The notes beneath the pieces were generated by a model. The model ran no database searches. It was not told the origin of the DNA and saw nothing but the letters and a program-made list of their open reading frames with translations. Positions 28,905 to 53,914 of a stretch of DNA of 64,000 nt are shown here, one piece after another. The translations under genes were made by a program, and so were the position numbers. Numbering within the stretch: position 1 is the first letter of the stretch; each line of letters begins with the position of its first letter. Source of the stretch: Patescibacteria group bacterium (GTDB lineage Bacteria; Patescibacteriota; Minisyncoccia; Phycocordibacterales; DATDWN01); the NCBI GenBank assembly GCA_013816135.1, contig JACDEV010000002.1, positions 33,120-97,119 of the forward strand, given 5' to 3'.

Positions 28905-31900
28905 TTATTTAGTTTTTGTTCTAAGATACTCTTCTAAGTCCTGATCGAATTTATCCATACTTTTTTCGATCAACTCATCAAAATCAGGAACCACATTTGT
29001 GTGCTCGTCTCCAAAGATACTAGCAAGCTCCTGACGCTGAGATTCATTCCCCAGCAGAATTGCTGAGTACATATGCTCTCCGAATCCTCGTTCAGATTCG
29101 TTGACTTGAAGAAAATTAGAAATATTTTTTCCGTTTCCACAGGTGTCCCCTCCATCTCCAACAAAGTAAAAAGCGGATGCATAGTCAGGAAATTCTTCCA
29201 CTTGTTTGTTAAGCTCAGTTGCTGACTTTTTTATTCCTTCCAGCATATTTGTGCCACCATTTGCATTCAGTCCTTTCATTAATCTGACCTTTATAGTTGA
29301 GTTTGTACCGTCACCAAAATCATACCTTTGAGGTGAGTCGTAGTCTTGTTGGAAACCTTTTATTTCGGTTACGGAATCAGAAAAAGTATCAATTGAAAAT
29401 CTTATGTATCCAAACGCATCAGAAATACGACTAAATAGTTCAGAATAAAATACTAAAAGTTTCCTAGCACTTTTTAATTTTTCTCCTGCCATTGATCCTG
29501 AAACATCCACAAGAATAGAAGCCATAAATCTAGGTTTAATCGAAGGACGGATCTCTCGAGGATTCTTAACCATGCCAAAAATTAGATTTCTTGTTCTCAT
29601 TACTGCCCGACGATTAAATGACCCTTGTCGAGTTAACGAGTCTTCATCTAAACCTACTTCCTCTTGCCTTGGCAAGCGTTCTGCAAAATACTTAAACCAC
29701 TTATCAACTAAAATTGAGACTTCTTCTCGTATATCCTCATATTCACTGTATAGTTTATTCTCCTGTTCTACTTCTTTCTGTACTCGATCAAGATCTTCAA
29801 GTTTTTTTTCGTCTAATTCCTTCAATATTTCATCTCTTTTCTTTTCATCCATAAATCCGTCTTCTACCATCTTATCTACCCCCTCTCTTATCTTATCTTT
29901 CATCTGATCTTCTTTAGCTTCAATCTTATCTTGAAGTTCTTTCTTCATATCATCAAAAATTTCAGCTTCTTCAATCTCTTTTTTCAAATCAGCGAGCTCT
30001 TTGAATTTTTCTGCCTTCTCCATATTTTCATCGAGTCTCTTTTTTTGCTCCCCCATCTTATCCATTGTGTCTTTTGCTTCCTGAAGCTCTGACTCTGACT
30101 GTTCCATTTCTTTGTCTGTTGCATCAGGCATCTGATCTGTCGGGCTTTCCGATTTTCCTTCACCTTTTTCTTTCCCAGGTTTTTTACTTTTCTTTCCTTC
30201 TTTATCACCTTTTTTACTTTCTTTGTCTTGAGGACCTTCTACACCTCCGTCCTCAGCTTCCTCGGAAGATTCGTTGTTTTTTTCTTTATCTTTATCCTTC
30301 TTGTCCTTTTTATCCTCAGGTTTAGGATTCGGTGTAGCATCAAAACGTCTCCAACTATTTCCATCCCATATTTCTGACCAGGCATGGCCAGTACTTTGGG
30401 TAATAGATGATTTTCCTTCCTTAGAACCTTGGACTTTATGTCCTATAATTAGTCGAGCTGGTACTCCTGCCTTACGAACCATCGCAATGAATTTGGTATT
30501 TGCAGAATAACACTCTAGATATTCAGAGCTATCTAAGTTTTGAATATAATTATCACCAGTAGAATCTTTTCGCAATTTATATTGTAAAGCTTGGGCCATT
30601 TGTAAATCTCCACCTCCAGGATAAAAGTGATTGGCAAGTATGTGCTGACGAGCTTGTTCTGCTTTTTGAATTGAATTACCCATCATGCGAGAAATTACTA
30701 CTTCAGTTTTCGCAGATAAAGTACCTTTATAAAGTGAAGTGGAGTCTTCAATAATTGGAGAATTGATAAATGCATTCTCTTCTTTTTGAAAGCTAATTGA
30801 AAATTTAACAGGAGCATTTGCCTTTATATAAAAACATCCATTTTGATCACGAGAAATTTCAGGTTTATCACCTCCTTCATATGTAAGTGATGAAATATCC
30901 AAAGCGTAACTATTTGGTATTGGTAGGGATTTTAAACCCTTATCTAAAATTCCTGAAATAGTAGAGTGATCAAGATTCTTACTTGACTCATTATATAAAG
31001 TAAGTTGTTTCTTCTTGCTCCAAGTCTTTGTCTCCTTATCATAATAGCTTTTCCTTCCACTTATATAATATCCACCTAAAGCTGGTTCAATCTCAAAAAT
31101 AGGCGTTGCTTCCATTTTTTCTTTTGATTCATTACCTTGTGCTGGTGGAGGAGTATGATATTCATCCTGATCATCTTCAGGAATAGCTGGATCTTCGGGT
31201 GCTCCCGGTGGCACAGCTTCCTGTTTGAATTCTTCAAGTTCTTTTTCAAGTTCCTTCATACTGTCACTTGAATCGTTACTTTGTGTTTCTTTTTGGATAG
31301 TTTTTAATTCATCACGGACTGTTTCTGTTAATTTCTTATATCCTTCTTCATTGCCATTCTGAACATATTCGTTGTAAGAATTATTTAGGTTTTCGAATAA
31401 AGCACGTTCGTCTCCTGAGAGCTGAGAAATTGCTGCATCTCTTTCTTCAGATGAAACAAGCTTCATTTCTTCTGATAACCAGTTCATTTTTAAGGCTTTT
31501 AAAACTTTTTCTGATCTAGAAAAATCATTTATTTTCTCAATAGTGTCTTTTGCTTCATTCTCCAACGTATTAATTATTTGTTTTTGTCCTGTATATCCAT
31601 AAGAATCATAAACTTTTTTTTGGATTCTAGATTTTGTTATATGGCTATATAAATTATCGAGCTCCTCGAGTGGAATATCCTTTCCTCTCATACTTTCTAC
31701 AAACTTAGCAAACCTTGGATAATCATAATGTGCAACAAAAGCCGTAGTGTCACGAATACGTGCTGAAACTTTTTCCAATCCTTCTTTTTCTATATCTTCA
31801 GCATTGTATATAAGGGCATCTGGAGTTATGTCGTGAGCTACTTCTTCAGCCGAAAGATTTCCATCCAATAGACCTTGAAGTTTCTCGGCGCGAGAGGCCT

Positions 31901-32057
31901 TATCAACTGGGTGATGTAATGCCCATTCCTTACCCGGTAAAACTTTTATATTTCCTTCTGCTGAACTTTCAGCCAAAAAAATCATCTCACGGCTGAATTT
32001 TGAATTCTTTACATGCTGTGGCTGAAACATTCCACCGAATTTATCTAATCCTTTCAT
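28905..32057 (-). CDS. multidomain protein: transglutaminase-like Cys-peptidase core, K/E/D-rich coiled-coil linker, C-terminal vWA (MIDAS) domain
   Basis: TGase-like core CYSANTKFIAMVRKAGVPARLIIG...GHAWSEIWDGNSWRRFDAT (C/H/D triad). ~250 aa of charged low-complexity coiled coil. vWA MIDAS motif ILVDVSGSMAG plus GGTNM and GDGGDT. Confidence 0.8.
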   Translation of the reverse strand: MKGLDKFGGMFQPQHVKNSKFSREMIFLAESSAEGNIKVLPGKEWALHHPVDKASRAEKLQGLLDGNLSAEEVAHDITPDALIYNAEDIEKEGLEKVSARIRDTTAFVAHYDYPRFAKFVESMRGKDIPLEELDNLYSHITKSRIQKKVYDSYGYTGQKQIINTLENEAKDTIEKINDFSRSEKVLKALKMNWLSEEMKLVSSEERDAAISQLSGDERALFENLNNSYNEYVQNGNEEGYKKLTETVRDELKTIQKETQSNDSSDSMKELEKELEEFKQEAVPPGAPEDPAIPEDDQDEYHTPPPAQGNESKEKMEATPIFEIEPALGGYYISGRKSYYDKETKTWSKKKQLTLYNESSKNLDHSTISGILDKGLKSLPIPNSYALDISSLTYEGGDKPEISRDQNGCFYIKANAPVKFSISFQKEENAFINSPIIEDSTSLYKGTLSAKTEVVISRMMGNSIQKAEQARQHILANHFYPGGGDLQMAQALQYKLRKDSTGDNYIQNLDSSEYLECYSANTKFIAMVRKAGVPARLIIGHKVQGSKEGKSSITQSTGHAWSEIWDGNSWRRFDATPNPKPEDKKDKKDKDKEKNNESSEEAEDGGVEGPQDKESKKGDKEGKKSKKPGKEKGEGKSESPTDQMPDATDKEMEQSESELQEAKDTMDKMGEQKKRLDENMEKAEKFKELADLKKEIEEAEIFDDMKKELQDKIEAKEDQMKDKIREGVDKMVEDGFMDEKKRDEILKELDEKKLEDLDRVQKEVEQENKLYSEYEDIREEVSILVDKWFKYFAERLPRQEEVGLDEDSLTRQGSFNRRAVMRTRNLIFGMVKNPREIRPSIKPRFMASILVDVSGSMAGEKLKSARKLLVFYSELFSRISDAFGYIRFSIDTFSDSVTEIKGFQQDYDSPQRYDFGDGTNSTIKVRLMKGLNANGGTNMLEGIKKSATELNKQVEEFPDYASAFYFVGDGGDTCGNGKNISNFLQVNESERGFGEHMYSAILLGNESQRQELASIFGDEHTNVVPDFDELIEKSMDKFDQDLEEYLRTKTK

Positions 32058-32061
32058 ATTA

Positions 32062-35000
32062 TTATGCCCTTACACGCTTTTTTGAAGTCCAAGTATTCAT
32101 TACTGTTCGAATTCTCTCCTGATCTTCTTTTTTATCTATATGAGTCAAGAAATACTTATCTAAGAGATTCCTAGCTACAGTTTCAGGATTTGCAGTAGCT
32201 TTCTCTTCTGGAGTCATCTTGCTAAGGGAGTATGCACAGCGTCGCAATTCACGACTAGTGATTGGCTGTGTAACAGGCAAAGCATTTCTTGATTCTCTAG
32301 TTTTTTCAAAAACTTTAATAAAGTCTGCTCTTAAATTATTGGAAAATTGGACTAATGCCAAAGAAGCATCCAAATCGAACTTTTGTGTACTTGTAGGGTC
32401 TTGAGCACCGTTCTCTATGCCATTTACATATCTATCCCAAAGTTTTACAAATTCGTTGCGCTCTAAGCTAGCCTCATATGTCAGATCTTCCAGCGAATCT
32501 ATACCTCTTGCCAACCGTAAAGCTTCCGATGCGTCATAAGGCAAATTCGGATTATTATCACCAGTATCTGGATTTCGTTTTAAAGGCGGATAATCTATTT
32601 CCATTTCTACCATACGGCTTCTGGTAGCAAGCTGAGGATCAAATGTTCCAGGATATCCAGGATTCATTGAACCGATCAAAATAACACTAGGTAATGCTTT
32701 TATTGTTTTTCCTGAGCTAGTCTTCAAAGTCAGTGAGCGCTTTTCATCCATAAGAGAATGTAGGAAGATCTGAGCCTGTTCCGGCATAGCATTCAATTCA
32801 TTAAAATAAACTATAGCCCCAGGAGTAGTAATTCCATTAAGTACGGCAGATGGCACCTTCACAGTTTGTGAAGCCCCATCCTTTGATTCGAGCATAACAT
32901 CTTCAGATAATTCAAATTCGGTGGTCCATTTTGAACAATCAATTCCAAAATACGGACGATGTGTTAAAGAAGAAAACATCTTTATCCTAACATCTTTTCC
33001 AGTGCCGGCATGGCCTTTCAAGTTTAAAAGATCTGCTTGCAAATCTAATTGCATCTTCAAAGCTTCTGCCATTTTTTCCAAATCCTTTTCTGTTTGGCTG
33101 TCTATAACCCAATGACTCTGCCATTCAGGAACATAACCTTTGCCGTTAGTATATCCTACTTCAGGCTCAGTTTTTACCTCGTCTATTCGTCTCAAAATTG
33201 AAATATTATGTTCCGCAGCAAAAGCTGAATATTCTTTTAATTTTTCTTTATATTCGTTTTGCCATACAACATCTAGTTCTGGTATTCTTTCACTTTTTTT
33301 TGGCCTTCGAGAATAAGTTTCCTTCAAAGCTTCTCTTTTCTTCTCAAATTCTGTCCTCAAAGGAGATTTTTCTCCTTGTGACCAGTCTGTATATTCTTTC
33401 CTTATATTTTTAAATTCTTTTGCACTCAAATATGATGGTGGAATAGACTCTCCTCGATAAGAAAGCAGTCCTAGTCTCCATTCATTTTCTTGTTCCCAAC
33501 CTTCATATAAACGAACATGTTCAACCTTGCCTGTAGACGTTTTAATTGATAGTGAAATATCGCCATAAATATCTGTAGCTTTGACACCTGGGCCGTGACT
33601 TCTCTCATCTTCTTCGAAAGTGACATCTACTTTACGTTCTACTTTTTCCTTTACTTTGGCTTCCCATTTTGGGAAAGGAGTTTTTCCAAACAAAATCATT
33701 TGCTGTCCTGTTTCTGCTACTTTTGTCATTGCCCCTCTTTCAATTTCGGTCAATGCATTGGAAATTCTTACTTTTAAACCTTTTTCTAATTCTTTTGCAA
33801 CATCAGGATTATCATTTGAAAGGCCCTTTATTTCTATTTCCAAAGTTTTTTTAGCTTCACTAGAAGAAAGGTACTGTTCAGCATCTTTTCTGCTAGTAAA
33901 TCCTTTTGTTCGCAATCTATCAATTAAACCGTCTGCATCTTGAGAAAGTACATCTACAGTCGTTCCTATTCTTTCAGAAGCTTTTTCTCTGACTTTTGCA
34001 TATTCTAATTTAAACTTTTCTTCATTTGTCGCTGCAATATGTTGTAATTCATTTCGAGCAGAGATTATGGCTTTGTATGCTTCATCAGCTTCCAGAGGAA
34101 CATCTTTTAGTAAGGAACCTAGTCTGGATTTTAATTGTGGATATCGGAATTCCAACCAATCATCCATCTGTGATTTGCTGGTAAAAGCTTCAATATCTAC
34201 CCTCGTTCTTTCTATCATTCCTGCTATATCTTTTGTGATCTCTCCACCACGTTGCCGAAAAAGTTCCAAAGACTTTTGTTCAAGTTCAGTCGATAATTCG
34301 CTCACTTCTTCACGTAAGTTATTTTCAAGAAGAGCTTCGACTGCCCTGACCTTGGTCATCATAGCTCTGGCTTCCCCCACAGAAGAAATAGTGAGTCCGC
34401 TGATAAGATTTGCTCGCACTGAAGTTAAAGCCTCTTGTGCAACTTTGAGTGCAAATTCTTTTTCTTTAGAGACAATAGGTTCTTCTAAACCTTCTATAAT
34501 GTAATCAATTTCATTTTGTTTAAGACCTTGTCTTACAAGAACACCTTTGAGTTTTTCAAATCCTTGCCTAACACGAAGTGCATCTTCTTCAGTTGTCATC
34601 TTCGAAATCACCTCACTAATCTGTTCTTTATATTTTATACGCAATGGATCCAGGTGTTCCAAGCTCTCTCCAGTTTTGGCAACCTTCTTTAAAGCTTCTG
34701 CTTCAAAAAGATCTCCAATAGAAACACCTTCTGCGATTTTGGCCACACGTCTTTTCTCCAGCTCTTCTTCAAAATCAGCAAAATTAGGTTCCAATATGAC
34801 CAAGAAACCATCTTTATTGATAGCTCTGATTCTTCCAGTAGAATCAAAATTAACCTGAGTTAGTCCTGGAACTCTCTTAACTTCTTCGAGCGTATCTTTA
34901 GTAATTACAACTAGATCTTCTTTTGAATAAAAAAAGAAAAAATTACCTGTAGGATCTATCTGAAGATTACTTATACTTTCATATTTTTTTGGGAATAGAA

Positions 35001-35949
35001 CTGAAACTGGACTCCATATAGAGGTATCTTGACTCATATCTAATTTAAATACTTCACTAGGATTATTATTTCTACAATAAAATATTGTATTAGGATTTTT
35101 CGGATCCTTTACAATATTATTCTTTATTCCCGAAATATTATCAAAAAAGAGTGGCTTTTCATTTATTTTATTCTTATCTACAATATTTATACCAATATCA
35201 GTAATTAAAACTCCATATTTCTCATGTGAAATATCGCAATATTCCCCGGGCAATCCTTCAAAAGTTTCAATGTATTTCTGCAGGTCTTCTGGAACAACTT
35301 CAGAGTTAGGGTCTATTCTTTTCCAGTTTCGAGGAGCTTGAATAACTCCTGCGGCATTCTCAGTAATGTAGGATATAAATAGATTTTTACCTTTATTACC
35401 AAAAACAATATATTTACCACCATTAAGGATGTGAGCTGAAGGTTCACTAAGTAGAAGGTGTTCTTTTTGATGAAAGTTAGCTATTGGAAAACACCAGTCA
35501 TTACTATGTCTTTTTATAATATCTCCTCCTTTTTTATGTAAAAATGGTGGTAAATCCTTTAAATTGAGTACCATTGAATGTACTTGACTATCATTTCCTA
35601 AGTGAGTTTTTCTTTTGTCTTGAACTATTTTTTTTATATCAATGTCTACATTGGTTTTATTCAATGAATCACTGAAATCCTTAACTTCTTCACCTTTATC
35701 ATCATAAATAGTTATTTTATCTGAATTTTCCAAAACGACTATTGTATAGTCATTCCATGGTAAGATATTTTCAATTTTTTGTGATCTTCCACCTTCTTTA
35801 TTGATCGGTTTTTCAGATCTTCTTATCTCCTTAAGCTCTAGTTCTGCTAATGCCTCATTATCCTTTGGAGCTGATGATTGTTGTGGAACTGGAACATCAC
35901 TATGGGCCGGAATTCCTGACATTGCTCCTTCACGATTAAAAATAGACAT
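32062..35949 (-). CDS. giant (1295 aa) protein with a C-terminal MoxR-like/AAA_5-type AAA+ ATPase domain
   Basis: Walker A LKGHAGTGKD (~33000), Walker B IVYFNELNAM, sensor-1/Arg-finger region ILIGSMNPGYPGTFDPQLATRSRM. The N-terminal ~900 aa are unassigned (possible beta-rich repeats then long helical region). 2 nt separate it from the downstream vWA gene. Confidence 0.75.
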   Translation of the reverse strand: MSIFNREGAMSGIPAHSDVPVPQQSSAPKDNEALAELELKEIRRSEKPINKEGGRSQKIENILPWNDYTIVVLENSDKITIYDDKGEEVKDFSDSLNKTNVDIDIKKIVQDKRKTHLGNDSQVHSMVLNLKDLPPFLHKKGGDIIKRHSNDWCFPIANFHQKEHLLLSEPSAHILNGGKYIVFGNKGKNLFISYITENAAGVIQAPRNWKRIDPNSEVVPEDLQKYIETFEGLPGEYCDISHEKYGVLITDIGINIVDKNKINEKPLFFDNISGIKNNIVKDPKNPNTIFYCRNNNPSEVFKLDMSQDTSIWSPVSVLFPKKYESISNLQIDPTGNFFFFYSKEDLVVITKDTLEEVKRVPGLTQVNFDSTGRIRAINKDGFLVILEPNFADFEEELEKRRVAKIAEGVSIGDLFEAEALKKVAKTGESLEHLDPLRIKYKEQISEVISKMTTEEDALRVRQGFEKLKGVLVRQGLKQNEIDYIIEGLEEPIVSKEKEFALKVAQEALTSVRANLISGLTISSVGEARAMMTKVRAVEALLENNLREEVSELSTELEQKSLELFRQRGGEITKDIAGMIERTRVDIEAFTSKSQMDDWLEFRYPQLKSRLGSLLKDVPLEADEAYKAIISARNELQHIAATNEEKFKLEYAKVREKASERIGTTVDVLSQDADGLIDRLRTKGFTSRKDAEQYLSSSEAKKTLEIEIKGLSNDNPDVAKELEKGLKVRISNALTEIERGAMTKVAETGQQMILFGKTPFPKWEAKVKEKVERKVDVTFEEDERSHGPGVKATDIYGDISLSIKTSTGKVEHVRLYEGWEQENEWRLGLLSYRGESIPPSYLSAKEFKNIRKEYTDWSQGEKSPLRTEFEKKREALKETYSRRPKKSERIPELDVVWQNEYKEKLKEYSAFAAEHNISILRRIDEVKTEPEVGYTNGKGYVPEWQSHWVIDSQTEKDLEKMAEALKMQLDLQADLLNLKGHAGTGKDVRIKMFSSLTHRPYFGIDCSKWTTEFELSEDVMLESKDGASQTVKVPSAVLNGITTPGAIVYFNELNAMPEQAQIFLHSLMDEKRSLTLKTSSGKTIKALPSVILIGSMNPGYPGTFDPQLATRSRMVEMEIDYPPLKRNPDTGDNNPNLPYDASEALRLARGIDSLEDLTYEASLERNEFVKLWDRYVNGIENGAQDPTSTQKFDLDASLALVQFSNNLRADFIKVFEKTRESRNALPVTQPITSRELRRCAYSLSKMTPEEKATANPETVARNLLDKYFLTHIDKKEDQERIRTVMNTWTSKKRVRA

Positions 35950-36372
35950 ATGATTTAAGTTAGATTAATTCTAACTTATTAATTTTATAAAAGCCAAGGA
36001 GAACAACACACTGTCAGGTTTTCCTTCGCCTCTCAAACTTGTCGTCACGTGGCCGTTCGCCTCCTTACAGGAGCAGTACACCTTGCCTGGTTTTTTCATT
36101 CACTTTGTTCTGAAAAAACCAGGCAAGGTCTTGCGACTGGGACCCTTATCCCAGTCTCACCTCTCAGGTAAACCTGACAGCGTGGCACGCAAAAATCCGC
36201 TTTCGCGGATTTTTTCGTGAGCCACCTTGTCTTCTGGGAAACACCACAAGAGTACTTCCATTTGCTAAAGCAAATTAGGTCGCCCACGGTTTTCCCAATC
36301 CTTCCTCCACGGGAAACTCCCGTTTCCCGACCCCTTCCCGCTGACAGGAAAATCTCACTAATGTGAGATTTT

Positions 36373-36448
36373 TGGAGCCACCTGTCAGGTTTGAACTGAC
36401 GACCTGCCGTTTACAAAACGGCTGCTCTACCAACTGAGCTAAGGTGGC
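36373..36448 (-). tRNA. tRNA-Thr (anticodon UGU), CCA encoded
   Basis: Reverse complement GCCACCTTAGCTCAGTTGGTAGAGCAGCCGTTTTGTAAACGGCAGGTCGTCAGTTCAAACCTGACAGGTGGCTCCA folds as a cloverleaf. 7-bp acceptor stem, anticodon loop TTTGTAA, T-arm GTCAG/CTGAC. Confidence 0.85.
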
Positions 36449-36564
36449 AATAATTAAATTCGTGGCGGGCAGGGCTAAGGTGGCAATATTTACTTTTAAT
36501 CCTAGGCTTTAGGCCACCAAATTAACTCATTGAATTTAACATTCTTCGAGCTTTATTTCAAGCT

Positions 36565-50530: not shown

Positions 50531-53317
50531 TTATTTTTCTATTAAAACTATATTATCTTGCGTTCCCCATACCTCGCTTAATCCGGTATAATCTGCTGAA
50601 ATCGAAATATCCTCAGAATTGTATAAAAAAGGCACAGACCAACTAACATGCATACCTGCTACCAGAGAGCCGAACATGAATACAAATTTATTCTTCTGAA
50701 GAAATTCGGGATGTTTATTTGATGTATATTTATAATAATCCAACCCAGGTATCCAATATTTATCACTATATTTACTTTTAATATACATTCCTACTTCATA
50801 CAAACTTTTACCCACCATTTCATCCAAAGAAAATATTTTTATTTTATCTGATGGTATTAAATCATAATTTATCATTGCAGTGTCTAGATTTAGAACATAT
50901 TCTGCATTATTTCTCGGATCATTATTTTCCCTTATTTGATAATCTAATTGATTTTGCTTAACTATTTCTGGGGTAGGATTTATAGGCTGGAGATTAAAAG
51001 ATGAATGTTTATAAAGATCTACAAGCACAGGATTAAATATCTCGGCCAAAGCTTCCAATGAGAGATTTGAGATTTTTTCCTCCTTCACACTTTCCTTTTT
51101 AGGATTTACTGACTTTCCCCCAGCAGGCCAAGCTTCTCTACTTGGTCCTCGTCCAAAAATATAATCAACTGTATCTCTTGGGCCATTAAACTCTATTGTC
51201 CTTCCTAGCGGAATCTTTGGAGCTTTTATATCAAAAGAATTTACTACTCCGCCCGTCCCATAATCAGGTCTTTGTTCCCAACCGCTGCTTGTAAAAAAAC
51301 CAAACTGATCTTTAAACAACTGATAAAGATAAGCTTTGTCTGTTGGGTTAGTGCTTTGAGAAACAAATTCTTTCCACAAATAATAATCTAATTCATATTT
51401 ATATCCTTCTTTCTGCCACTGTGACAGAACTTTATCTAATCCTCGCATTGAAAGCACTGACTCCTTTAGCATATATTGAATTGCCCTTTGTCCTCCCTCT
51501 TTAAAGTAAAAAGCGCTGTTTGACTCTTTGCCAGCAAAAACATTTTGGGTAACCCTTGCAACCTTAGCCAGATTCCAAAGCTTATCCACTGTATCTTCTG
51601 GTACTTCTAGATTTCCATTATCATCCATCACTTTAGAAATAAGCAGTTGGAATAATTCATTTTCTCCACCCGCCTCTGAATAAATAGTCCCTTCTGTTAC
51701 TTGTGGCAAATAATCATATTCAATTTTATAAATTCTAGACAAAAAAGCAGGGTCCATGTCTTGTCTATCGACATATCTGTCATCTCCTTGATTTAAATTC
51801 CCAGTCATTATAACGCCGTAACCCTCTTTCACAGTTATTGCTGAACCGCTGTTTTGTTGGACACTTACTTCATCACCCACTTTTCTTGTCAAAATATGAT
51901 TCATACTTATAAGAAGTTCATGCGGAATAGCGTTTACTTCGTCGATAATAACTGGCTTTCCTTCTGCCATTGCTCGATAAATTGGTCCGATAAAAAAATC
52001 AGATATGGTTCCACCTTTGAACTGAGTTAAATAAGTTTGAAGTAACCTCTCATGTGCTCGGTTTTTTTCATTTTCTGCGATCTCTGGAGGCAGTGAACTT
52101 AATTTATCTTGATTCTCTATAATCCAATCATCATATTTTTTCTCAACATTTTTTACAAAAACTTCAAGTTCTTCCTTCTTTATTTTTTCAATATCAAGCA
52201 CCTGATGACCATACAACTCAGCACTAGACATGTTCTTTGACCCAGAAATAACTAAAGCAGACCTGTGAGAACTATCTAATTCTTTTCTTTCCTCCTTTTG
52301 TTCTTCCAAAGAGGCGTTCGGATTTTTTTCTAACCATACCTTGTAAGATTCTTCAATTTTTTGGTCGATATCAGGCCGATCATTCAAAATATAATTTTTA
52401 GCAATATGCATTGCTAATTCAGTTTTACCGCTTCCAAGATGTCCATATATCATTACTGGTTTTCCGGAATTCAAGTGGCTGACAACATCTTCGATGTTCT
52501 TAACTACATATGGAGTTTCTGCAATACGACCGTTTTCTAAGTCATCTTTGTATTTTTTTAGTTGCTTAAGGTGTAATCCATAATAAGCTTCAGGTGAGGA
52601 AACAAGTAGATTTTCTTTTTTCCATTGTTCCTCATTTATTTCTTCTCTGATCTCATTTAAAGCTTCCAGTTCAGAACTACCAGGTTCCTCTTTCATACTT
52701 TTCAAAATTTCACTTTCTTCTTTTCTTAAAGAACGAAGGCGTGACTCTATATCATGTTCTTCCCTCAAAGCTTGTCGTAGATTTGCAGTTTTAAATTTTA
52801 TTAATTTTTTTTCTGGAGAATTATCCTTTCCCAAACTTTCTTCTAATTCTCTTTCCAAACTCTCTTCATTAATTAAAGCTTTATTTGCAACTCTAGGCCT
52901 TCTAGACTTTGAAAGAACCTCTTCAGGCTTTAAAGGCATTCTTTCTGTGTTCGAAAGTTCAGTCTCTTTATATAGCTCATTCTTTACTTTATGAAGTTGT
53001 CTTGCTTTCTTTTCGATGTCATTGACCTTATATTCAATTTGAGGCCATTCCACTGGCTCTTCTTCAACAACTATCTCCCCTATAAAATACCCTGAGTAAG
53101 GGTCAGCAGGATTAGAATCACTAATAATTCTGATTGTATGAGGATCTGTTCCAGGTGATTGGGTACCTTGAAGTCTGATTATTTTTCTTCCTTTTGCACT
53201 ACTTTCCCACGCTATAACATTATTATTTTTATCTTTCTTCTCTTTAAAAAAAACGCCTGAAAGCACCTTATTATCTTCTTGTTTTTCAATTGTTTCGCTT
53301 GATGGGAATTTTTCCAT
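50531..53317 (-). CDS. MoxR-like/AAA_5-type AAA+ ATPase (928 aa) with long N- and C-terminal extensions
   Basis: Walker A GHLGSGKTE (~52430), then a ~150-aa insertion, Walker B PVIIDEVNAIP, and sensor/Arg region VIMTGNLNQGDDRYVDRQDMDPAFLSRI. Confidence 0.75.
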   Translation of the reverse strand: MEKFPSSETIEKQEDNKVLSGVFFKEKKDKNNNVIAWESSAKGRKIIRLQGTQSPGTDPHTIRIISDSNPADPYSGYFIGEIVVEEEPVEWPQIEYKVNDIEKKARQLHKVKNELYKETELSNTERMPLKPEEVLSKSRRPRVANKALINEESLERELEESLGKDNSPEKKLIKFKTANLRQALREEHDIESRLRSLRKEESEILKSMKEEPGSSELEALNEIREEINEEQWKKENLLVSSPEAYYGLHLKQLKKYKDDLENGRIAETPYVVKNIEDVVSHLNSGKPVMIYGHLGSGKTELAMHIAKNYILNDRPDIDQKIEESYKVWLEKNPNASLEEQKEERKELDSSHRSALVISGSKNMSSAELYGHQVLDIEKIKKEELEVFVKNVEKKYDDWIIENQDKLSSLPPEIAENEKNRAHERLLQTYLTQFKGGTISDFFIGPIYRAMAEGKPVIIDEVNAIPHELLISMNHILTRKVGDEVSVQQNSGSAITVKEGYGVIMTGNLNQGDDRYVDRQDMDPAFLSRIYKIEYDYLPQVTEGTIYSEAGGENELFQLLISKVMDDNGNLEVPEDTVDKLWNLAKVARVTQNVFAGKESNSAFYFKEGGQRAIQYMLKESVLSMRGLDKVLSQWQKEGYKYELDYYLWKEFVSQSTNPTDKAYLYQLFKDQFGFFTSSGWEQRPDYGTGGVVNSFDIKAPKIPLGRTIEFNGPRDTVDYIFGRGPSREAWPAGGKSVNPKKESVKEEKISNLSLEALAEIFNPVLVDLYKHSSFNLQPINPTPEIVKQNQLDYQIRENNDPRNNAEYVLNLDTAMINYDLIPSDKIKIFSLDEMVGKSLYEVGMYIKSKYSDKYWIPGLDYYKYTSNKHPEFLQKNKFVFMFGSLVAGMHVSWSVPFLYNSEDISISADYTGLSEVWGTQDNIVLIEK

Positions 53318-53372
53318 TTCTATATATAAATTATATATTTATAATAGCTAATTATAGACAACATTGTAATAC

Positions 53373-53401
53373 TTGACAGTATAATGATTGTCTGCTATGC
53401 T
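53373..53401 (+). promoter_or_regulatory. candidate promoter TTGACA-N17-TATGCT (plus strand, intergenic)
   Basis: -35 at 53373-53378, -10 at 53396-53401. The downstream + strand transcript would end at the 53625-53648 terminator. Confidence 0.35.
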
Positions 53402-53624
53402 TATTTTAGAATATATGGTGTATGATTTCGTTAACGTTTAAGGTCTTATGGAGCTATGACTCCAACGCTTAAAAGCGGGTTTCTTGATTAGCCAAATCAT
53501 GAAAGCACTCCCACGCTTCGTTTGTCTAGCCACGACAAACGAAGCACAAGCCCATAAAAGCGGAAGGCCTAGAGTAAAGAAACTGGAGACCCACCATGGA
53601 CCAACATTGAATAAGCTTTTGTAA

Positions 53625-53648
53625 GGGCCCCTCGATAGGGGCCTTTTA
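53625..53648 (+). terminator. plus-strand rho-independent terminator
   Basis: GGGCCCCTCGATAGGGGCC followed by TTTT. Confidence 0.55.
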
Positions 53649-53698
53649 TCTTCCAAAATAGCCTTAGAAATAAGGTTATTTTTGTATTTAAAATTAAC

Positions 53699-53727
53699 TT
53701 GACAAACATAGCTGGGTCTGCTATACT
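53699..53727 (+). promoter_or_regulatory. candidate promoter TTGACA-N17-TATACT (plus strand, intergenic)
   Basis: -35 at 53699-53704, -10 at 53722-53727. The transcript would end at the 53888-53913 terminator (~175 nt). Confidence 0.45.
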
Positions 53728-53850
53728 ATCTACAGTAGTTGGAATTTTTTTCAACTATAGTTCCTTAGGAAAATGTTTATTGTCCGAGTTGATGGTTAGC
53801 CACACCATCATGCTTCTCGGCTTCTAGTTGCTTAGCCACAGCGACAAGAT

Positions 53851-53913
53851 GAAAAAAATGAGACTCTTTAAATAAAGAGTCAAACAAGTCCATCTTAAAG
53901 GTGGACTTTTTTT
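53851..53913. terminator. back-to-back terminators: minus-strand hairpin GAGACTCTTTAAATAAAGAGTC with an A-run (53851-53881) and plus-strand hairpin GTCCATCTTAAAGGTGGAC followed by T7 (53888-53913)
   Basis: The minus-strand hairpin/T-run ends the upstream vWA gene transcript. The plus-strand hairpin/T-run ends the candidate plus-strand sRNA. Confidence 0.55.
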
Positions 53914-53914
53914 A

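Follow-up and report, generated by a model that had tools for sequence, protein, structure and literature searches.

A gene pair of Candidate Phyla Radiation bacteria encoding an AAA_5 ATPase and a transglutaminase-like/vWA protein, a putative protein-remodelling machine

Organization of the locus

The subject of this analysis is a 64,000-nt stretch of DNA (the window, whose own positions are used below) from a Patescibacteria group bacterium (assembly GCA_013816135.1, contig JACDEV010000002.1, positions 33,120 to 97,119), in which two adjacent genes, here named A and B, encode a pair of very large proteins. Gene A (32062..35949, minus strand) codes for an AAA_5 ATPase of 1295 aa that is much extended at its N-terminus, and gene B (28905..32057, minus strand) codes for a 1050-aa putative adaptor and enzyme, in which a transglutaminase-like (TGL) domain precedes one of the von Willebrand factor A (vWA) type; both were recognized as open reading frames (ORFs) with homologues. 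The genes are co-oriented and separated by 4 nt (TAA-taat-ATG). A preliminary description of the locus gave coordinates and sizes of the two ORFs that match our ORF calls exactly, and a gap of 2 nt, which is corrected by the measured spacer. [quoted passage not shown]

Homologues of A fall into 54 clusters (44-67% identity over the full length) and those of B into at least 189, the best 120 listed being 51-74% identical. Because so many clusters of full-length homologues exist, at 44-74% identity, both A and B can be regarded as real genes.

A tRNA-Thr(TGT) gene is located on the same strand (36373..36448, minus strand), 423 nt upstream of A. The preliminary description had placed the operon downstream of this tRNA, but the adjacency is incidental, as other loci have different tRNAs nearby or none.

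Domain architecture of protein A

The C-terminal part of A (residues 951-1295; 32065..33099, minus strand) is a CbbQ/NorQ-like AAA+ module, composed of a large subdomain and a lid, which was delimited with Pfam AAA_5 and the family profile. At 43.5 bits, the AAA_5 match (residues 977-1113) exceeds the cut-off, which is 22, in agreement with the earlier assignment. A Pfam scan of A with E-values up to 1 returned only this family and, weakly, Sigma54_activat and AAA; neither AAA_3 nor a CbbQ_C domain was detected in it. When the profile of the A family was compared with the PDB, the only matches were CbbQ (5c3c, 6l1q) and NorQ (9qh4, 9qhd), with E-values of 4e-12 to 1e-9. The module is the most conserved part of A (mean pairwise identity 0.70-0.76). 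No NCBIfam model reached its cut-off with either A or B.

The N-terminal region of about 940 residues, previously described as unassigned, has no Pfam match, and in this respect the description stands; structure prediction, however, resolves it into a propeller, long helices, and a beta and helical region. According to the AlphaFold2 model (built on 40 homologues; mean predicted local distance difference test score, pLDDT, 79.5), residues 39-388 (34786..35835, minus strand; pLDDT about 80-90) form a beta-propeller, which is the least conserved domain of the protein (mean pairwise identity 0.44). It is followed by a long helical or coiled-coil region (390-738; 33736..34782, minus strand; identity 0.56), with predicted helices of up to 60 residues, and by a segment (742-927; 33169..33726, minus strand) modelled as a small beta domain (742-842) and a helical bundle (843-927), the two parts having pairwise identities of 0.67 and 0.52, respectively.

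The PDB matches that Foldseek found for the N-terminus of A are all generic, either WD40-type propellers or proteins that combine a propeller with helices (UTPs, IFT, Nups, COPI), and therefore no functional inference can be drawn from this fold. The N-terminal 960 residues are specific to the family: they have only 126 relatives among 1.84 billion representatives clustered at 50% identity, and nearly all of these relatives either are collinear with A over a length of about 1,300 aa or represent pieces of such proteins. The A family is therefore small and sharply defined.

The nucleotide-binding site of protein A

The two Walker motifs of A, both invariant in the alignment, deviate from the consensus. 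In Walker A (G979-HAGTGK-D986; 32992..33015, minus strand), which aligns with GPTGCGKS of CbbQ, the canonical Ser/Thr is replaced by Asp, and in Walker B (AIVYF-N1050-E1051; 32797..32814, minus strand), aligned with YLDE of CbbQ, Asn takes the place of the canonical Asp while the catalytic Glu is retained. In other words, A has GHAGTGKD and VYFNE instead of the canonical GxxxxGK[ST] and hhhhDE. The Walker A K-D pair occurs in 128 of the 130 family members, sensor-1 Asn (N1096) and the Arg finger (R1112) are kept in at least 125, and the full K-D/N-E/N/R motif set in 123. The Walker Lys, the catalytic Glu1051, Asn1096 and Arg1112 are thus conserved in A. Another combination, GKN with a canonical DE, is present in divergent relatives of the SR1/Absconditabacteria type and in one further representative (P0295).

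The stretch between the two motifs (about residues 1005-1040, KWTTEFELSEDVMLESKDGASQTVKVPSAVL) is almost invariant and aligns continuously with the respective region of CbbQ; as far as can be judged from this alignment, A possesses the helix-2 insert of the MoxR clade (CbbQ/NorQ/GvpN group), which is situated between the Walker motifs.

These substitutions may be read in two ways. It has to be considered that the AAA+ module is a scaffold which binds nucleotide without hydrolysing it or is entirely inactive, that the pair forms a static complex of propeller, coiled coil and vWA domain, and that the TGL domain of B acts alone. Such an explanation would account for the replacement of both Mg-coordinating residues (the Ser/Thr of Walker A and the Asp of Walker B) in a family where the full K-D/N-E/N/R set is found in 123 of 130 members, and the long helices and propeller of A are typical scaffold elements. 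We nevertheless regard it as highly improbable: the Walker Lys, catalytic Glu, sensor-1 Asn and Arg finger are retained as part of that same motif set, no part of A is more conserved than the AAA module (identity 0.76), and the replaced positions co-vary (GKD with NE; GKN with DE in the SR1-like clade) in such a way that exactly one carboxylate is kept, as expected of a working Mg-ATP site. This co-variation argues for a nucleotide site which is apparently re-wired and working rather than dead. The family can be viewed as a natural experiment on Walker motifs, in which the carboxylate has been moved from Walker B to Walker A (GKD/NE), while a sister clade provides a partial alternative (GKN/DE).

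Domain architecture of protein B

The AlphaFold2 model of B was built on 44 homologues and has a mean pLDDT of 80.5. It begins with a helical domain (residues 22-278; 31224..31994, minus strand; pLDDT about 80-90), for which Pfam and PDB sequence searches gave no match, followed by an acidic, proline-rich motif recognized by its conservation (PEDPAIPEDDQDEYHTPPP; residues 279-320, core 284-303; 31098..31223, minus strand). This motif is mostly non-regular in the model, and D289, A291, I292, P293, D296, D298, E299, Y300 and H301 are invariant or nearly so.

The next region (residues 321-580; 30318..31097, minus strand), assigned with Pfam and Foldseek, is TgpA-like and consists of a beta-sandwich (321-425) and the TGL catalytic core (449-580). 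Transglut_core (PF01841) matches residues 486-574 with 40.7 bits, against a cut-off of 23, and the catalytic triad is conserved, C516 in at least 90% of the sequences and H558 and D573 in all of them, so that the TGL assignment made in the preliminary description is well founded. The top Foldseek matches of B are structures of the periplasmic domain of Pseudomonas aeruginosa TgpA (6g49, 6g4h; E = 8e-8, 290 aligned columns), and hmmsearch of the PDB with the profile of B also found TgpA only (6g49, E = 4e-3).

A linker (residues 581-800; 29658..30317, minus strand), defined by composition and by the model, connects the TGL core with the C-terminal part of the protein. It comprises a K/E/D-rich disordered stretch (586-645, with pLDDT below 50 at 586-594 and 610-636) and long helices (648-794), and its two parts have pairwise identities of 0.37 and 0.55. 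About 52% of residues 551-800 are K, R, D or E, which bears out the highly charged spacer noted before. Directly behind the linker lies a segment (801-842; 29532..29657, minus strand) which is modelled with low confidence (pLDDT below 50 at 802-818 and 828-840) despite a pairwise identity of 0.72, and which is a candidate for an interface or for an element that is remodelled.

The C-terminal domain (residues 843-1050; 28908..29531, minus strand), delimited by Foldseek and conservation, is a vWA domain with a complete MIDAS and a 21-residue insert (901-921), conserved and visible in the modelled secondary structure. The MIDAS residues D851, S853, S855, T936 and D968 are invariant in the 44 homologues. 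The Foldseek matches of the model settle the assignment: NorD of the NorQD cryo-EM complex (9qhe_G, E = 5e-6) comes first and is followed by integrin I domains and the MIDAS domain of Rea1/MDN1 (E-values 5e-6 to 7e-5, probability 1.00). Together with the invariant MIDAS residues they confirm the earlier vWA/MIDAS call, which is sub-threshold in Pfam.

Every folded domain of A and B has a mean pairwise identity of at least 0.44. The maximal Kyte-Doolittle hydropathy (19-residue window) is 0.94 in B and 1.0 in A, and no transmembrane segment or signal-like N-terminus was found in either protein by hydropathy analysis. Since neither has a hydrophobic segment suitable for a signal peptide or membrane helix, both are assigned to the cytoplasm.

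The domain content of B is relevant to the possibility that the pair is purely a chaperone for assembly or cofactor insertion, serving an unlinked target as CbbQO serves Rubisco and NorQD serves NO reductase, and that the TGL domain is used only for peptide binding or docking. The closest relatives of the AAA and vWA parts are indeed CbbQ/NorQ and NorD, MoxR-vWA couples in general mature complexes (PMC7159879, PMC9976466), and the very slow evolution of both proteins, described below, fits a conserved cellular client. However, the Cys-His-Asp triad is kept across all clades, which argues for catalysis by the TGL domain; the structurally nearest TGL protein, TgpA, acts as a transglutaminase in vitro (PMC3507681); and no client gene is linked to the pair in 39 loci. 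We consider a function of this kind, without catalysis, to be improbable.

Distribution and linkage of the gene pair

A pattern-based scan of GTDB, with one genome per species (185,579 species genomes) and therefore giving a lower bound only, yielded 159 relatives, and approximately 47 of the loci that were kept carry full-length or near-full-length orthologues of B. The titles of these loci name Parcu-/Paceibacteria, Kerfeld-, Uhr-, Levy-, Davies-, Roizman-, Peri- and Peregrinibacteria, while the named sources of homologues are Komeili-, Taylor-, Kerfeld-, Magasanik-, Levy-, Roizman- and Gribaldobacteria and Paceibacterota, besides occasional labels that are obviously mis-binned. As far as seen, the pair is restricted to the Candidate Phyla Radiation (CPR).

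Some of the relatives found in the GTDB scan carry non-CPR titles (several third-party-annotation metagenome-assembled genomes labelled Gammaproteobacteria, as well as Methyloversatilis, Pseudomonadales and Bdellovibrionales). One of these, "uncultured Gammaproteobacteria" (locus L009, CAZPCZ010000015.1), was rejected as such: its ribosomal protein S2 is 70-90% identical to S2 of Candidatus Uhrbacteria, which indicates that the taxonomic label is wrong.

The exact sequence of B is also present in a 52-kb contig of another assembly (L078; GCA_020064125.1, JAITZQ011203765.1), which carries the same 1295-aa A gene and the same two genes downstream. With contig numbers above 1.2 million, that assembly may be a very large and fragmented one from a different organism or community, in which the CPR genome of the window is also contained.

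The two genes are strictly linked: in each of the 39 loci with both of them, A is located directly upstream of B in the same orientation. In six loci B was matched without A, and in every case the B match ends no more than 400 nt from a contig end. Spacers range from 4 to 27 nt in all but three of the 35 loci with full-length ORFs, in which the pairwise identities of A and B are also correlated (r = 0.94), so that the two proteins co-evolve. The lengths of the proteins are nearly fixed, at about 1270-1330 aa for A and 1025-1120 aa for B.

No further gene accompanies the pair. In tblastn comparisons of 18 window proteins with 77 related loci, the neighbours in the window (pheS, a GT2 glycosyltransferase gene, tsf, rpsB and prf) were not found beside the pair elsewhere. 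All-against-all clustering of 704 flanking ORFs (7 kb on each side) revealed no family present in more than 4 of the 39 loci, and hence no third gene; a linked client gene was likewise absent from these loci. There was no relative of the pair on viral contigs of IMG/VR, fold matches in BFVD were limited to vWA domains, and PHROGs contained only a CobS-like AAA match and a weak match to a tail protein. With PADLOC-DB 2.0, A gave no match and B matched only TerY (vWA; E = 1.8e-4) and, at chance level, LmuB. Source databases name both proteins only generically, and a literature search found no paper on the family; given also the lack of an NCBIfam match, the architecture is as unusual and uncharacterised as was first supposed.

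Rate of evolution and inheritance

Both proteins are highly conserved in comparison with others encoded by the same genomes. In 30 genome-pair comparisons, B was more conserved than the shared flanking protein in 24 cases and A in 18. Between the window and L009, A is 67% and B 65% identical, as against 39% for S2, 37% for EF-Ts and 43-47% for GAPDH, and in a syntenic pair of loci (L019 and L024) the values are 74% for A and 88% for B but 49-53% for five syntenic neighbours. Conservation above the level of S2, EF-Ts and GAPDH suggests an important cytoplasmic activity, the target of which is most likely a conserved cellular protein or complex and not a fast-evolving invader.

Clustering of B largely follows the taxonomic labels, with Peri- and Peregrinibacteria together, Levy- and Roizmanbacteria together and Paceibacteria together, which fits old and mostly vertical inheritance with many losses. 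Bacteria of the CPR (Patescibacteria) constitute a large share of bacterial diversity, have genomes of roughly 1 Mb and are mostly uncultured, and some of their lineages spend about 7 kb on this two-gene module.

The results on distribution and rate have to be set against a further explanation, in which A and B serve in conflict, defence or threat signalling and follow the MoxR-vWA grammar of Kaur et al. 2020 and of the actinobacterial Esr pathway, with the propeller sensing a foreign or host-derived signal, the AAA+/vWA part setting a threshold and the TGL peptidase acting as the effector. The same four domain types (beta-propeller, MoxR-clade AAA+, vWA and TGL) occur in the systems of PMC7159879 and PMC13622651. 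The sparse distribution of A/B, its varying genomic context devoid of conserved neighbours, and the fact that the propeller is the least conserved domain of A also speak for this explanation, as do the position of the L009 pair among Paceibacteria-type pairs, which suggests horizontal transfer, and the neighbourhood of distant pairs, where a reverse transcriptase gene is found in L056 and a serine recombinase gene in L071. What makes it unlikely, in our opinion, is the combination of several features: there is no third component, no PADLOC match beyond the weak one to the TerY vWA domain, no relative on viral contigs and no tRNA-derived flanking repeat marking an island; the P-loop variant of A differs from GXXXTAKS; the evolution of both proteins is slower than that of S2, EF-Ts, GAPDH and syntenic neighbours; and architecture and length are almost fixed, which is the opposite of the diversification that defines conflict systems.

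Distant relatives, a second pair and the region upstream of A

Genomes of the SR1 and Gracilibacteria type (genetic code 25) contain diverged pairs, with the order B then A in three of them (L051, L052 and L054). In these three loci, of the SR1/Absconditabacteria type, Walker A is GKN and Walker B is DE, complementary to GKD/NE of the main family.

Doudna- and Kaiserbacteria possess distantly related TGL-vWA proteins of about 870 aa, and there the partner AAA_5 proteins are built differently, with the AAA module near the N-terminus. The loci L056 (5117..12064) and L071 (1631..9387) encode such proteins of 862 and 876 aa, respectively. In the former, a reverse-transcriptase gene is located between the TGL-vWA and AAA_5 genes, and in the latter a gene for a large serine recombinase adjoins the pair; these neighbours hint that some distant relatives of the pair are mobile.

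The window itself contains a second pair of an AAA_5 protein and a vWA-like protein (50531..56140, minus strand). The 741-aa ORF (53915..56140) has an HExxH-like motif (HELSH), an acidic, charged middle part and a C-terminal MIDAS-like motif (DMSGS...TDG), and its similarity to the TRAP vWA domain is weak (E = 0.043). A 928-aa AAA_5 protein, the Walker A motif of which is canonical (GHLGSGKT), is encoded about 600 nt downstream of it (50531..53317). The organization of this pair resembles that of A/B, and similarity to A/B at the sequence level is detectable in the AAA core only.

The intergenic region between the tRNA-Thr gene and A (35950..36372, minus strand, 423 nt) has a GC content of 0.46, as against 0.37 in the window. 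The RNA predicted from it is strongly structured (minimum free energy -168.6 kcal/mol, z = -9.4 relative to shuffled sequences), a search of Rfam gave no family match, and an 88-nt part is 80% identical to a site of the Kaiserbacteria locus L071 (12530-12614), which does not adjoin the AAA/TGL pair of that locus. The region may represent an undescribed non-coding RNA or an operon leader.

A 19-nt stretch overlapping the 5' end of the tRNA-Thr gene (36438..36456) recurs 36 nt further upstream (36474..36492) with 95% identity (family D9) and may be a remnant of a partial tRNA duplication. No tRNA-derived direct repeat was found at the far end of the pair, and thus there is no signature of an island.

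Proposed function

We propose, with a probability of about 0.5, that A and B constitute a self-contained cytoplasmic AAA+/vWA remodelling machine of the NorQD/CbbQO type, the adaptor of which carries a catalytic TGL domain of its own. B has the layout of NorD, the nearest AAA modules to that of A are CbbQ and NorQ, and a precedent exists in the MoxR-vWA-TgpA combination; on these grounds A/B is read as a soluble, fused, two-gene variant. The second pair of the window also counts in favour of this proposal, as there, too, an AAA_5 gene accompanies the gene of a protein in which a charged linker and a vWA-like C-terminus are combined, in that case with an HExxH-like motif.

In such a machine, A would assemble through its C-terminal AAA_5 module into a hexameric ring, displaying six beta-propellers on long helical arms, and would turn over ATP despite its GKD/NE motifs. 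The C-terminal vWA/MIDAS domain of B would dock on this ring to form a complex, in which six copies of A would be expected for one of B, probably with a hairpin or loop inserted into the pore, as in NorQD. ATP turnover would then twist or pull the conserved segment preceding the vWA domain together with the charged helical linker, and this motion would position or gate the TgpA-like TGL module, which might cleave, deamidate or cross-link a protein held by the MIDAS site, the propellers, or both. The chemistry of the TGL domain and the nature of its substrate are conjectural in this scheme, and the earlier suggestion of an AAA+ remodeller that frees a transglutaminase-like protease, in other words a peptidase rather than a transamidase, would be one form of it.

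For the element entering the pore there are two candidates in B, the conserved insert 901-921 and the conserved low-pLDDT segment 801-842, for neither of which an alignment with NorD could be obtained.

Several observations weigh against the proposal. The interaction of A and B is our inference, and ATP hydrolysis is not assured, given that neither the Ser/Thr of Walker A nor the Asp of Walker B is kept (GKD/NE). The Pfam models VWA and VWA_2 score only 16-18 bits at residues 848-974 of B, below their cut-offs, and sequence alignment of this domain with NorD and other solved vWA domains produced chance matches only. The 21-residue insert is far shorter than what we would presume for a finger of the NorD type. 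There is no candidate substrate, as no neighbouring gene is conserved. The family is also sparse, with 126 representatives in the 50%-identity set and, as a lower bound, about 47 loci of near-full length, and so does not provide a core function of the CPR. Finally, the pair of the Uhrbacteria-like locus L009 groups with Paceibacteria-type pairs and not with the Uhrbacteria locus L021 (48-50% identity), which makes some transfer within the CPR likely.

A bolder version of the proposal, which we consider distinctly unlikely, is that A/B represents a CPR-specific, split "midasin-like" mechanoenzyme, in which a cysteine enzyme tethered through the MIDAS is driven by a propeller-armed AAA+ ring whose Mg-ATP site is re-wired (GKD/NE), and in this way processes one of the conserved core machines of the cell, for example ribosomal or division components. 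If it were true, the pair would represent a new class of ATP-dependent protein processing, distinct from Clp, Lon, FtsH, HslUV and the proteasome, and the co-varying exchange in Walker A and B would be a new functional variant of the P-loop site. Irrespective of this, the pair is a compact and well-defined target for heterologous expression and cryo-EM.

Comparison with known systems

The published "highly conserved CPR protease" CPR-C4 was considered as a relative and rejected, being an unrelated protein of 221 aa.

With Midasin/Rea1 the pair shares a motor of the AAA_5 clade, a long helical linker and an acidic low-complexity region directly before a C-terminal MIDAS, and the MIDAS domain of Rea1/MDN1 is among the structural matches of B. 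Midasin, however, has six tandem AAA modules per chain, whereas A has one, and this excludes membership; moreover, in A/B the motor and the MIDAS reside on separate chains, a TGL enzyme is present and the host is a bacterium. The similarity is one of architecture, not demonstrated orthology.

The preliminary description also saw a resemblance to NTP-dependent ternary conflict systems, whose subsystems include VMAP, iSTAND, FtsH and beta-propeller types (Kaur et al. 2020, PMC7159879). These systems and the actinobacterial Esr pathway (PMC13622651) share with A/B a MoxR-clade ATPase, a vWA domain, a peptidase (rarely TGL), a beta-propeller and a sparse distribution, but A/B has no third component (VMAP, iSTAND, FtsH or a TPR-propeller protein), hypervariable effector, kinase or FHA partner. 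In the beta-propeller subsystem the propeller follows the vWA domain on its C-terminal side and the P-loop is GXXXTAKS, whereas in A/B the propeller is at the N-terminus of the ATPase, and not on the vWA protein or on a sensor protein, with the P-loop GHAGTGKD. In contrast to the diversification of the conflict systems, the architecture of A/B is fixed and its evolution very slow. Membership was therefore rejected, on account of the missing conserved third component and PADLOC match, the very slow evolution without diversification, the different P-loop and the location of the propeller on the wrong protein. The survey cited above (PMC7159879) left CPR genomes out of its multicellularity statistics.

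A closer parallel is provided by the three-gene operon MoxR-vWA(DUF58)-YebA/TgpA, which has been predicted to be an ATP-dependent protein-processing system (Zhang & Aravind 2012, PMC3495828), and whose TgpA component is essential in P. aeruginosa (PMC3507681). Its three domain types recur in A/B, and the beta-sandwich and TGL module of B is structurally closest to the periplasmic domain of TgpA. The differences are that A/B comprises two genes instead of three and combines TGL and vWA in one soluble fusion protein; that TgpA/YebA has 6-8 transmembrane helices and B none; and that A is AAA_5/CbbQ-like, with a giant extension and no AAA_3 match. On the basis of gene number, the absence of membrane helices and the lack of an AAA_3 match, A/B was not assigned to this classical operon.

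The best available analogy, and one already drawn in the preliminary description, is that with CbbQ-CbbO and NorQ-NorD. As in these systems, the A and B genes are adjacent and co-oriented, and A has a single AAA_5 module, for which CbbQ and NorQ are the only sequence relatives in the PDB. B resembles NorD and CbbO in its N-terminal domains, disordered linker and C-terminal vWA domain with a full MIDAS (layout compared with PMC9976466), and NorD is the best structural match of its vWA domain. A differs in its approximately 940 extra N-terminal residues, forming the propeller and helices, in the GKD/NE Walker motifs and in the apparent absence of CbbQ_C, and B differs from NorD and CbbO in carrying an apparently active TGL enzyme. 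The cbbQO and norQD genes adjoin genes of their clients, whereas A/B has no linked client gene in 39 loci. A/B is also restricted to the CPR. In NorQD and CbbQO, a single vWA adaptor is docked on a hexameric MoxR-type ring with a finger in its pore, and an ATP-driven twist of the adaptor linker remodels the client bound at the MIDAS (PMC9976466, PMC13036017). A/B thus brings together three partly understood themes: finger-in-pore remodelling by MoxR-type AAA+/vWA couples, bacterial TGL enzymes such as the essential TgpA, and propeller-armed motors.

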